Assembly: GCA_034665065.1 (NCBI GenBank)
Contig: JAXDGL010000001.1
Span: 34,691 to 98,690 of the forward strand
Direction: 5' to 3'
Source of the DNA: Thermoanaerobaculia bacterium
GTDB lineage: Bacteria; Acidobacteriota; Thermoanaerobaculia; Gp7-AA8
Length of the DNA stretch: 64,000 bases
In this document: in pieces, positions 9,724 through 51,313 of the stretch
Layout of the letters: every line of letters starts with the position of its first letter
Position numbering within the stretch: the first letter of the stretch is position 1
The notes under the pieces: model-generated
Databases searched by the model: none
Told to the model about the DNA's origin: nothing
Seen by the model: the letters and a program-made list of their open reading frames with translations, nothing else
Program-made: the position numbers and the translations under genes

Positions 9724-9766
9724 TCACGCGGAGACGCGGAGAAAGCCTCCGCGGTCTCCGCGTGAA
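9724..9766. repeat. Palindromic MITE/REP-like element family A (CACGCGGAGACGCGGAG...CTCCGCGTCTCCGCGTG), short copy
   Basis: tcacgcggagacgcggag...ctccgcggtctccgcgtgaa; five further copies occur in the window. Confidence 0.85.
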
Positions 9767-13740: not shown

Positions 13741-13818
13741 AAGGCGTTTCACGCGGAGACGCGGAGGGCGCGGAGTTGCTTTTCTTCGCGCTCCCCGCGT
13801 CTCCGCGTGAAATGCCTT
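13741..13818. repeat. Family A palindromic element
   Basis: aaggcgtttcacgcggagacgcggag...ccccgcgtctccgcgtgaaatgcctt. Confidence 0.9.
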
Positions 13819-29564: not shown

Positions 29565-29639
29565 AAACCGTTTCACGCGGAGACGCGGAGGCCGCGGAGA
29601 AAAGCACCGCGCTCTCCGCGTCTCCGCGTGAAACGGTTT
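29565..29639. repeat. Family A palindromic element
   Basis: aaaccgtttcacgcggagacgcggag...ctccgcgtctccgcgtgaaacggttt. Confidence 0.92.
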
Positions 29640-42595: not shown

Positions 42596-42652
42596 TCACG
42601 CGAACGTGCGGATCGACCCTCCGCGTTCTCCGCGTCTCCGCGTGAACCGTTC
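42596..42652. repeat. Family A element, partial
   Basis: ttcacgcg...ctccgcgttctccgcgtctccgcgtgaa. Confidence 0.75.
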
Positions 42653-43115: not shown

Positions 43116-43135
43116 CTGAATGAGCATTCATTCAG
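43116..43135. promoter_or_regulatory. Palindromic operator CTGAATGA-GCAT-TCATTCAG (Bacillus FadR/YsiA-box-like) overlapping the -10 of a TTGACA (43099) promoter
   Basis: Perfect 8-bp IR directly upstream of the TetR gene. Confidence 0.7.
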
Positions 43136-43137
43136 TA

Positions 43138-43755
43138 ATGGCCAGCCAAGCGACCGCCCTCCCCTCCCCTCCCGAGACCGCGCGCGGCACGACCAAACGC
43201 GAGCGCATTCTTCGCGCCGCAATCGAAGTCTTCGCGCAGAACGGCTACTTCAACGCGAAAGTCTCCGAGATCGCCAAATCTGCGGGTGTCGCAGACGGTA
43301 CGATTTATCTCTATTTTGATGGCAAGGAAGACTTGCTGATCACCGTCTTCCGCGAGCACACGCGGAACTACCTGCAGTCGCTCGAACAGGCGCTCGCGCA
43401 CGTGCGCCGCCCCGAGGAGCGGATCCGCATTGCCATTCGCCACCACCTCGAGACCCTCGGCCGTGATCGTTCGCTGGCAATCGTCGCGCAGGTCGAGCTG
43501 CGCCACAGCCTGAAGTTCATGAGCCTCCTCTCGCAGCAGGAAGTCGCTGACTATCTCAACATGCTGCGCAAGATGATCGAGCACGGCCAGTCGGACGGCA
43601 GCTTCCGACGCACGGTCCATCCGCAACTCGGCGCAAAAGCGGTCTTCGGAATCCTCGACGAGATGGTTACGTCGTGGATCCTGTCGGAGAAGGACTACGA
43701 CCTCGCCGCCAGCGCCGACGCGATCGCCGACCTGGTGCTGACGGGGTTGCTGTAG
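43138..43755 (+). CDS. TetR/AcrR family regulator, Bacillus FadR(YsiA)-like
   Basis: [40 protein letters not shown]. Start placed after the operator; the ORF track gives 43120. Confidence 0.9.
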
Positions 43756-43860
43756 CGCTGCACAATCTCCCCAGTGTGGATTTGAGCTTTTCCCGAAGGT
43801 TCTTCCACCCTCAGGGCGGTCATAGAATTCTGCTTCGGTGCATTGCCGAGGTATTTTTTC

Positions 43861-44279
43861 ATCCGCAGATTGCGCAGATGGACGCAGATAGAAGAGATCC
43901 GCTGACCTACTCGGTGATTGGCGCGGCGATGAGTGTGCATACCGAATTGGGACACGGATTTCTGGAGGCCGTTTACCAGGAAGCTCTAGCCCGCGAGCTG
44001 GAAGCACGCGGAGTATCACATGTGCGGGAGGCTGCTCTTCCGGTCTTTTATCGTGGAGCCCTTCTCAAAACGACGTATCGCGCCGACTTCGTCTGCTTTG
44101 GCTCGCTCATCGTCGAGTTGAAAGCATTGAAGACTCTTTCGAGCATCGAGGAAGGCCAGACCATCAATTACCTCAAAGCGTCAGGAATGCAGAAAGCGCT
44201 TCTTATCAATTTTGGCGCTTCCCGCCTCGAATACAAACGCCTCGTCTTAAATCTGCGACCATCTGCGTCATCTGCGGAT
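43861..44279. mobile_element. GxxExxY cassette bounded by 29-bp inverted repeats built of GCAGAT sub-repeats
   Basis: atccgcagattgcgcagatggacgcagat (43861-43889) versus atctgcgaccatctgcgtcatctgcggat (44251-44279): 26/29 reverse-complement match. Confidence 0.6.
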
Positions 44280-44300
44280 AAAAACCTCGTGGGCAGATAG
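43878..44300 (+). CDS. GxxExxY protein (PD-(D/E)XK nuclease-like)
   Basis: [25 protein letters not shown]...IVELKA and LLINFG motifs. Confidence 0.93.
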
Positions 44301-49568: not shown

Positions 49569-49648
49569 AAAACCGTTGCACGCGGAGACGCGGGGGTCGC
49601 GGAGAAAGGCCGCTCCGCGTTCTCCGCGTCTCCGCGTGAAACGGTTTT
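49569..49648. repeat. Family A palindromic element
   Basis: aaaaccgttgcacgcggagacgcgg...ctccgcgtctccgcgtgaaacggtttt. Confidence 0.9.
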
Positions 49649-49693: not shown

Positions 49694-51313
49694 ATGCGAA
49701 TCCTTCGCGTGAAGTTCATCCTCCCCGCTCTCACCGAAGCGACCTCTCCCTTCTTCCGTCCGATCAAGTACTCGCTCTTTACGCCTCTCGGGTTGGCGAC
49801 GCTCGCTGCCTACCTCGGGCCGGACGACGACGCGCGCATCGTCGATGAGCATGTGGAGGTGCTCGGCACAGACGACCGACCGGATCTCGTCGTGATTCAG
49901 GTCTACATCACCAACGCCTATCGCGCCTATCGCATCGCTGACACCTATCGAGCCAAAGGCTGCTTCGTCGCGCTCGGCGGACTGCACGTGACGTCTCTTC
50001 CGACTGAGGCGGCGGCGCACGCGGACGCGATCTTCATCGGCCCGGGCGAACAGACGTTTCCGAAGTTCCTCGATGACTTTCGCGCCGGCCGCGTCGAGCG
50101 CGTTTATCGTTCGACAAGCGGCCGCACACTCGATCGCGTGCCTCCGATCCGCCGCGATCTCATCAAGCGCCGCAACTACCTCGTGCCGAACTCGATCGTC
50201 GTCACGCGCGGCTGTCCGCAACATTGCGACTTCTGCTACAAGGACGCGTTCTTCGAAGGCGGCCGCGGGTTCTACACGCAGCGCGTCGACGATGCGCTGG
50301 CCGAGATCGCGCGCCTTCCGGGCCGCCATCTTTACTTTCTCGACGATCATCTCCTCGGCGATGTCCGCTTCGCCCGCGCCCTCTTCGACGGGATGCGTGG
50401 CATGAATCGCCTCTTTCAGGGCGCAGCGACGGTCGACTCGATCCTTCGCGGCGATCTGATCGAACATGCCGCTGCCGCCGGTCTGCGCAGCATCTTCGTC
50501 GGCTTCGAAACGTTGACGCCCGGCAATCTCGCGCGCAGCAACAAGCGCCAGAACCTCGGCCGCGACTATCGCGCCGTCGTCAACCGCCTGCACGCCCTCG
50601 GCATCATGATCAACGGCAGCTTCGTCTTCGGCATGGACGATGACGGCGAGGATGTCTTTCGCCGCACCGTCGATTGGGCGATCGAGAATGGTCTCACCAC
50701 GGCCACGTTTCACATCCAGACGCCGTATCCCGGGACGAAGTTGTACGCGCAGATGCAGGCGGACAAACGGCTCACCACGAGCAACTGGGATCTGTACGAC
50801 ACGCGGCACGTTGTCTACAAGCCCGCGCGTCTGTCGCCCGCGGCGCTGGAGAAGGGCTATAACTGGGCATACCGCGAGTTCTACCGATGGTCGTCGATCG
50901 CGCGCGCGTCGTTGACGCATGGATCGGTGAAACATCAGACGAAGCACTTCTTCTATGCCGCCGGCTGGAAGAAGTTTGAGGCCTTGTGGAACTTCGTCAT
51001 TCGCATGAAACAACTGCGCAAGATGACGCCGATGCTGGAGGCGGTGCTGGCGAAGGTGACGGCGTCGGAGGCTGATGAAGTCAAAAGCATTTCACGCGGA
51101 GACGCGGAGGCCGCGGAGAGAGGCAACCCCGCGTTCTCCGCGTCTCCGCGTGAAACGGTTTTGACTCTTCGCTACGCACCCCACGCGCTCCCCGGCGCCC
51201 ATTCCGCGGCCTTTGCGCGCAATGCGGCCGCGCGCGCGGAGTCGCCGGCGGCTTCGGAGAGCGCGGCGAACATCACCAGCGTTTCGGCGAGGAGTGGGTC
51301 GGGATCGGTGTAG
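49694..51313 (+). CDS. B12-binding domain radical SAM protein with a repeat-derived C-terminal extension
   Basis: GGLHVT cobalamin-binding region, RGCPQHCDFC (CxxxCxxC) and TPYPGT motifs. Confidence 0.9.
   Translation: MRILRVKFILPALTEATSPFFRPIKYSLFTPLGLATLAAYLGPDDDARIVDEHVEVLGTDDRPDLVVIQVYITNAYRAYRIADTYRAKGCFVALGGLHVTSLPTEAAAHADAIFIGPGEQTFPKFLDDFRAGRVERVYRSTSGRTLDRVPPIRRDLIKRRNYLVPNSIVVTRGCPQHCDFCYKDAFFEGGRGFYTQRVDDALAEIARLPGRHLYFLDDHLLGDVRFARALFDGMRGMNRLFQGAATVDSILRGDLIEHAAAAGLRSIFVGFETLTPGNLARSNKRQNLGRDYRAVVNRLHALGIMINGSFVFGMDDDGEDVFRRTVDWAIENGLTTATFHIQTPYPGTKLYAQMQADKRLTTSNWDLYDTRHVVYKPARLSPAALEKGYNWAYREFYRWSSIARASLTHGSVKHQTKHFFYAAGWKKFEALWNFVIRMKQLRKMTPMLEAVLAKVTASEADEVKSISRGDAEAAERGNPAFSASPRETVLTLRYAPHALPGAHSAAFARNAAARAESPAASESAANITSVSARSGSGSV
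51080..51165. repeat. Family A palindromic element read through in frame by the radical SAM ORF
   Basis: gtcaaaagcatttcacgcggagacgcggag...ctccgcgtgaaacggttttgac. Confidence 0.9.

Follow-up and report, generated by a model that had tools for sequence, protein, structure and literature searches.

A GxxExxY nuclease-fold gene framed by inverted arrays of a phased heptamer: a candidate nuclease–repeat partnership in a Thermoanaerobaculia genome

The window analyzed here, a stretch of 64,000 nucleotides from a genome of 5.67 Mb in 34 contigs, contains a small gene of the GxxExxY family, both ends of which lie in the arms of an inverted repeat. The features of the locus are, in window coordinates:

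43120–43755, forward strand: gene for a TetR/FadR-like regulator (tetR), flanking the cassette
43831–43853, forward strand: stem resembling a terminator, with a T-run after it, between tetR and the left arm
43847–43895, forward strand: left arm of the inverted repeat, with the start codon of the GxxExxY gene inside
43878–44300, forward strand: GxxExxY/PDDEXK_3 gene of 140 amino acids, identified by profile matches, motifs, structure model and dN/dS
44245–44289, forward strand: right arm of the inverted repeat, traversed by the last codons of the gene
44294–44299, forward strand: single GCAGAT unit, oriented as in the left arm, just beyond the right arm and 3 nt ahead of the smc stop codon
44303–47830, reverse strand: smc, flanking the cassette

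The left core of the inverted repeat (43861–43889, ATCCGCAGATTGCGCAGATGGACGCAGAT) consists of ATCC followed by three CGCAGAT units, and the right core (44251–44279), its inverse, of three ATCTGCG units followed by GGAT; the two agree at 26 of 29 positions. The repeats and their three sub-repeats are read directly from the sequence, as stated in the original prediction, which gave the sub-repeat as GCAGAT; the full unit is CGCAGAT. Within each arm the units start 9 and 10 nt apart. A repeat search extends the arms to 40 nt with 85% complementarity (43856–43895 and 44245–44284), and if one small indel is allowed the inverted repeat stretches to 43847 and 44289, giving arms of 40–49 nt. The sequence GCAGATNNNGCAGAT occurs in the window in both arms and at one site with a single mismatch, and nowhere else, against a chance expectation of 0.42 hits. 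The inverted-repeat local-alignment score across the gene is 30, to be compared with a median of 11, a 99th percentile of 19 and a maximum of 21 in a null set of 400 random genome positions with the geometry of the locus.

The ATG of the gene (43878–43880) is made by the second unit of the left arm, and the final 17 codons pass through the right arm and 21 nt more to the TAG at 44298–44300. The overlap of the gene with both repeats and the convergent orientation of tetR and smc around the unit had been predicted correctly, but the gene is not exactly delimited by the repeats, since the ORF runs 21 nt past the 29-nt core. On the tetR side, the inverted repeat extends outward into the 3′ half of the stem at 43831–43853 and its T-run. 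On the smc side, the lone unit together with the right arm resembles the junctions of the form "right arm – GGATaaaa – left arm" known from other loci and, judged by this resemblance, may be the vestige of a former tandem neighbor.

The protein matches the TIGR04256 profile (GxxExxY protein) with 139.2 bits against a cut-off of 35, over positions 2–116 of 116, and PF13366 (PDDEXK_3) with 131.8 bits against a cut-off of 22; these two were the sole matches in the profile searches. The motifs G27-F-L-E30-A-V-Y33, D70 and E80-L-K82 bear out the predicted nuclease fold with its D…ELK signature, and G27xxE30xxY33, D70, E80 and K82 are invariant among 50 homologs. Same-site orthologs have dN/dS values of 0.06–0.13 and are hence under purifying selection. 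The AlphaFold model (pLDDT 87, pTM 0.79) displays an α–β core, with a folded part spanning residues ~8–123 and with the arm-encoded residues 1–5 and 127–140 predicted to be disordered. A Foldseek search against the PDB returned Cas4 SSO0001 (PDB code 4ic1) as top match (E = 2e-4), followed by LHK/lambda exonuclease, the AdnAB/AddAB nuclease domains, ACE1 and MGME1; Hjc superimposes on the model with an rmsd of 3.6 Å over 98 columns. The catalytic E…D…ExK arrangement is the same as in the Cas4/RecB-family nucleases; however, the TM-score to SSO0001 is only 0.42–0.53, and the present protein has no Fe-S cluster domain and no CRISPR context, and is half the size. The model and motifs suggest that the protein is a minimal, probably active RecB/Cas4-like PD-(D/E)XK nuclease. 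The GxxExxY/PF13366 family is a very large one among prokaryotes, and a single search returned 3212 homologs at E ≤ 1e-10. A sequence search found no solved structure for the GxxExxY protein, and a literature search on "GxxExxY" and "PF13366" found no functional study; the only functional statement on the family found in print reads "Unknown ... multiple transfers" (PMC3424549).

Three GxxExxY paralogs with 35–36% mutual identity are present in the genome, and every one of them is framed by inverted arrays of its own unit, i.e., CGCAGAT for the gene described above, CGCGGAG for the second paralog (locus L002) and CGCGAAG for the third (locus L003). The same three families stand out in an unbiased scan of all hexamers with at least three copies phased at 8–11 nt, which yielded 176 hits for CGCGGAG, 61 for CGCAGAT and 43 for CGCGAAG, and at most 4 hits for each of the other, non-overlapping hexamers, a poly-G run excepted. 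Clusters of at least three units number 46 for CGCAGAT, 195 for CGCGGAG and 65 for CGCGAAG, and most of them are gene-less "+−" hairpins, the loops of which retain the innermost cassette sequence. Among the CGCAGAT clusters, 23 are "+−" hairpins with the arm order of the cassette and loops of 8–35 nt, and 14 have the "−+" form, in which the right arm, GGATaaa...tttATCC and the left arm follow one another so that the outer ends are central. The hairpins are found intergenically, directly after stop codons. For each unit family there is one gene copy per genome, and in the present genome ~40 gene-less hairpin-type elements share the arms of the single CGCAGAT gene; the situation in relatives is similar. 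Beside the third paralog, a block of ~290 bp (L003:1899–2185, G000:C10) consists of repeated CGCGAAG modules (gtcacgcgaaggcgcgaagaacgcgaagggg-aagaagaaaggg) and then an inverted copy, which amounts to a multi-module expansion of an arm adjoining the gene.

The window also contains members of the second family:

9728–9761, 13753–13810, 29577–29627, 42619–42641, 49582–49635 and 51096–51149: CGCGGAG hairpins or arms, with tCACGCGGAG...CTCCGCGTGa ends

The gene-bearing copy of this family is the L002 paralog (G000:C28:159784–160170). These are presumably the palindromes that had been called family A and attributed to the class of element represented by the present gene. The attribution holds for the class, which appears to give rise to gene-less palindromes, but the palindromes in the window carry the arms of the L002 paralog.

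The relation between protein and unit extends beyond this genome. In a set of 32 full-length genes from the genus and two outgroups, the inverted-repeat score reaches or exceeds the 99th percentile of the null in 21 genes; the other 11 have eroded arms or none, with no significant inverted repeat, and are themselves intact. The unit types are each monophyletic on the protein tree, CGCAGAT with 8 genes, CACRGAG with 6, CGCGGAG with 12 and CGCGAAG with 4, and all units fit C-R-C-R-R-A-K. The CGCGAAG clade is nested within the CGCGGAG clade on a long stem, and the switch from CGCGGAG to CGCGAAG thus appears within the genus as a long-stemmed protein subclade. The survey of repeats around homologs that had been proposed thus shows that unit type follows protein clade. 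Within the genus, this match is partly explained by physical linkage. Stronger evidence comes from homologs of 66–70% identity in Pirellulales, Hydrogenedentes and the complete genome GCA_942493245.1, which have the same ATCCGCAGATgaCGCAGATnnnCGCAGAT arms: the units have stayed constant while protein and neutral sites diverged, and the cassette has crossed phyla. A search for fixed residue differences between the clades, as candidates for specificity, returned only a few, e.g., at positions 59 and 74, which are uninterpretable.

Tandem cassettes and fragments are found at two of the loci from other phyla (L091 and L092), and the "−+" form lies between such tandem cassettes. On the Hydrogenedentes contig DAOOWD010000022.1 (L092:9762–11144), four PDDEXK_3 genes or fragments follow one another in tandem, each junction consisting of a right arm and a left arm of CGCAGAT units, and cassettes can thus pile up head to tail. 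In GCA_942493245.1 (L093:6172–9923), mobile DNA is plentiful around the cassette, whose neighbors are an IS transposase of the rve type and the reverse transcriptase of a group II intron.

No sigma-70-like promoter was found for the gene, and expression probably occurs by read-through from the upstream gene because the ATG lies ~20 nt inside the end of the element. In the predicted RNA fold the arms pair (z = −4.9) and enclose the ORF and the AUG; a single transcript would, according to this fold, bury the AUG in a stem of ~45 bp. Pairing of this kind, the positions of the hairpins right after stop codons and between genes, and the persistence of arrays in genomes that lack the gene agree with a role at the structural or RNA level, in which the repeats would be terminators, mRNA stabilizers or RNase III sites, as in rRNA intervening sequences, that flank the gene by happenstance and are not read by the protein. 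We consider this quite unlikely. The inner 3-nt spacers of perfect hairpins, a small set, are complementary at 8 of 30 positions, which is the chance level, and the units are intact, so that it is the sequence of the unit that is conserved and not base pairing; the 7-nt units are moreover constant across phyla. A stem could form without three phased units in each arm, "−+" arrangements with the outer ends in the center exist as well, and no Rfam family matches. Furthermore, the correspondence of three paralogs with three unit families and the match between clade and unit would be left unexplained.

With respect to its location, the cassette is stable within the genus. Based on tblastn searches with the C-terminus of smc, all 8 CGCAGAT-clade genes of the genus and one pseudogene lie directly 3′ of smc, gene-bearing cassettes being present at this site in, e.g., the genome of study, G001, G006 and G008. 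The G008 copy (L048, G008:C344) is the pseudogene, frameshifted after YRAVLLN and preceded by two duplicated CGCAGAT arm modules, and by its sequence this cassette is decaying in place. In G009 and G004 the position 3′ of smc holds a mini-palindrome with one unit per arm (TTTTCATCCGCAGATCAGCGGAT), and in G007 a remnant of an arm; a clean empty site abutting a Uma2-like gene is found in G003, G010, G012, G002 and G011. The genome of study nests in the smc tree with G009, G004 and G003, all three of which are without the gene. The simplest history suggested by these sequences would be one old residence followed by repeated loss with footprints, and not repeated insertion. The synonymous divergence of the gene (1.2–2.4) exceeds that of smc (0.44–0.83) for the same genome pairs, a weak piece of evidence given 121 codons near saturation, and the excess could be due to codon bias, a higher mutation rate of the cassette or gene conversion.

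Unlike the site 3′ of smc, the adjacency of tetR and smc is peculiar to this genome and results from a rearrangement. In 13 congeners, the 8 kb downstream of tetR contain no smc gene, and among the complete genomes the distance between the two is 3.3 Mb in G003 and 60 kb in G007. The recent insertion between tetR and smc that had been envisaged is therefore not supported, the junction being no insertion target; the empty tetR–smc junction expected in relatives does not exist in these congeners, and empty sites are instead found 3′ of smc.

These data bear directly on the proposal that the locus is an autonomous minimal mobile element, the arms and gene of which transpose or home by means of the encoded nuclease, with one copy inserted between tetR and smc. 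In its favor, a single nuclease gene is closely bounded by terminal inverted repeats, five congeners have an empty site 3′ of smc, homologs of ~70% identity with identical arms in other phyla imply that horizontal spread has happened, and the tandem cassettes and fragments at L091 and L092, as well as the excess synonymous divergence over smc, point in the same direction. Against it stand the 8 genes and the G008 pseudogene at one and the same site, the single gene copy per unit family and genome, footprints in G009, G004 and G007 that point to loss and not gain, and the private nature of the tetR–smc adjacency. In addition, neither the cassette nor the flanks of 46 clusters nor the aligned empty sites show an evident target-site duplication. 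The hairpins, none of which has turned into a gene copy, argue against homing, in which the gene would copy itself into gene-less targets. Stable inheritance, which had been named as an observation at odds with a mobile element, is thus what is found at genus scale, and we regard the proposal as unlikely. What stands of it is that nuclease and sub-repeated ends belong together, as judged by the three paralogs with three unit families, the clade–unit match and the conservation of arms across phyla; the cassette itself has not been seen moving within the genus.

The gene-less hairpins, in contrast to the gene-bearing cassette, do occur as the same element at different sites, and their presence varies between species. 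The joined flanks of 13 CGCAGAT hairpin sites were searched in five congeners, and clean empty sites were found for C28:22709 in G009 (440/440 nt), for C33:97055 in G001 and G007, for C3:276564 in G004 and for C8:4814 in G007; the site matching C4:358743 is occupied in four relatives. In the alignments, one hairpin starts 8 nt past a stop codon and is traceless in the sister species; G003 shows a solo arm, and G009 the footprint of a single unit at C8:4814. Larger inserts (0.4–5 kb) at matching sites were considered as hidden cassettes and proved to be MazF-type toxin–antitoxin pairs, an NYN-domain gene and other small genes. At one such site, L099 (G003:C1:657739–658751) and its counterparts in G004, G009 and G007 have a MazF-like toxin and an RHH antitoxin where the genome of study has a CGCAGAT hairpin (C4:7000–7067).

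A count of three-unit arrays covered 31 genomes. Of the 18 genomes of the genus, 17 have CGCAGAT arrays (16–92 per genome), whereas none of 12 outgroups does. Any genome with a gene of a given clade also has arrays of the corresponding unit, in every case, and G013, with one gene, has arrays of that gene's unit family only. The converse does not hold: the mean number of CGCAGAT arrays per genome is ~52–53 with or without the cognate gene, and in the complete genomes G003 and G007 the one GxxExxY gene found even at E ≤ 0.01, mostly a non-cognate one, is accompanied by 43–121 arrays of other units, i.e., 43 CGCAGAT and 121 CGCGAAG arrays beside one non-cognate gene in G003, and 66 CGCAGAT arrays in G007. 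The gene therefore predicts the repeats, the repeats outlive the gene, as has been reported for REPINs and for Ssn, and, since arrays are equally abundant where the cognate gene is missing, their persistence does not need it. The link between gene and repeats could be purely historical. One species subclade of the smc tree has CGCGAAG arrays in 7 of its 8 members, against 0 of the 5 genomes outside it; all four genomes with a CGCGAAG gene are among the 11 of 18 with such arrays, an association that is not significant in a Fisher test (p ~0.11, by hand) and is confounded by phylogeny. G010 (95% complete, 50 contigs), the only well-assembled genome without a GxxExxY gene, is the sole member of the genus that also lacks arrays of all three kinds. 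The fragmented G014 assembly (960 contigs) has many arrays and no detectable gene, possibly as a result of assembly breaks at repeats.

The phasing of the units at 8–10 nt is similar to that of iterons or operators, the gene is framed by its own sites so that autoregulation is possible, and it is stable, single-copy and vertically inherited. Such features could also belong to a system without any spreading, where the arms would be operator-like binding sites for a protein that acts mainly in DNA binding, regulation or genome architecture, or as a guardian that processes hairpins and cruciforms. The invariance of the catalytic E/D/ExK residues in 50 homologs and the low dN/dS, however, argue that the nuclease is active, the hundreds of sites, scattered behind unrelated genes, do not make up an obvious regulon, and the gene is often lost while the sites remain. 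We therefore regard a purely operator-like or guardian role as improbable, and as the least probable of the readings given here.

The combination of features is most reminiscent of two known systems. As in the REP/REPIN–RAYT systems, or REPtrons (PMC3733652, PMC8266576), a single-copy, vertically inherited gene has its own short repeat on both sides in inverted orientation, intergenic regions contain tens to hundreds of hairpins (inverted doublets without a gene), a genome may have several gene–repeat pairs each with its own repeat sequence, and the repeats outlast loss of the gene. The RAYT protein, however, is an HUH/Y1 transposase of the IS200/IS605-like type, whereas the protein encoded here is a PD-(D/E)XK nuclease of ~125–140 amino acids without a cleavage-and-rejoining chemistry of its own; and the REP is a GTAG-tagged stem-loop, whereas the arms of the present cassette consist of ATCC and three phased 7-nt units without GTAG, and the ORF begins and ends within them. 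With the NTS/SRM–Ssn system (Chenal et al. 2025, PMC11893778) the locus shares a small gene for a single-domain nuclease in a repeat–gene–repeat layout, a repeat variant specific to each homolog, hundreds of dispersed copies, and an imperfect association of gene and repeat across genomes (81% for Ssn). Here the differences are in the fold, GIY-YIG in Ssn and PD-(D/E)XK in the GxxExxY protein, and in the repeat, a 20–50-nt hairpin of the CGTC-tagged REP type in NTS as opposed to a phased heptamer array. Site-specific cleavage of single-stranded DNA near its own repeat has been demonstrated experimentally for Ssn (PMC11893778), while for the GxxExxY protein cleavage is only inferred. The CGTC-tagged REPs described by Di Nocera (2013) were considered as an identity for the present hairpins and rejected, as they are stem-loops of 8–9 bp and identical with the NTS/dRS3 repeats that belong to Ssn. 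Insertion sequences and MITEs have in common with the cassette that terminal inverted repeats bound one gene, that gene-less derivatives resemble internal deletions, and that presence or absence between species leaves clean empty sites. They differ in that the present element, of only ~430 bp and without its own promoter, encodes no DDE, serine or tyrosine transposase, lacks an evident target-site duplication, and has an autonomous copy that is single and fixed in place within the genus.

On this basis we somewhat favor a nuclease–repeat partnership, REP/RAYT-like or NTS/Ssn-like in organization and based on another enzyme fold; no description of such a partnership for GxxExxY proteins was found in print. 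The locus would represent the gene-bearing "master" copy, in which three CGCAGAT units per arm frame a Cas4/RecB-like nuclease. The protein would recognize the units sequence-specifically, probably with several protomers per arm, and cut at or near the arms. The gene-less hairpins would be internal-deletion derivatives of cassettes, spread or maintained in trans as in REP/REPIN–RAYT and NTS–Ssn. Any mobilization would need host functions, since a PD-(D/E)XK nuclease is unable to rejoin DNA. Within the genus the gene copy is not hopping but is a single-copy resident at the 3′ end of smc, vertically inherited, often lost and sometimes left with eroded arms; on a long timescale the cassette crosses phyla.

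A more far-reaching and tentative proposal, which we think possible and rather doubtful at present, is that GxxExxY proteins in general are nucleases that read such units and that establish and propagate families of phased-heptamer hairpins, and that they constitute a third, cross-phylum nuclease–repeat symbiosis beside RAYT/REP and Ssn/NTS, with a specificity that is evolutionarily re-programmable. If these proteins are site-specific nucleases whose specificity shifts by a few residues, this would explain widespread intergenic and intragenic hairpin repeats, and, like Ssn, they could serve as small sequence-specific nuclease tools. The specific and easily synthesized DNA units make a very large family without assigned function directly testable by biochemical means, and the genus is a useful test set for this purpose, as it offers four unit types, footprints, genomes that have or lack each gene, and one genome devoid of both genes and arrays.

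The surroundings of the cassette differ from those in related genomes on both sides. In most congeners one or two Uma2-family genes (DUF820, also PD-(D/E)XK) are convergent to smc and are followed by a gene for a PAP2-like membrane protein (L039–L043, L046, L048–L050). In the genome of study the PAP2-like gene is located elsewhere (C32:20331–21209), and the best Uma2-like matches are on C9; no CGCAGAT arm, as a reciprocal product of the rearrangement, is found by this PAP2-like gene, which in relatives comes after the cassette. Almost every species of the genus has a different sequence 3′ of the TetR/FadR-like gene (window 43756–43860; L005–L018, L025–L037). Found there are small DUF433-like ORFs, an AAA ATPase and other genes, as well as, in G005, a duplicated fragment of tetR; the flank has the appearance of a hot spot where small accessory genes gather and rearrangements occur.
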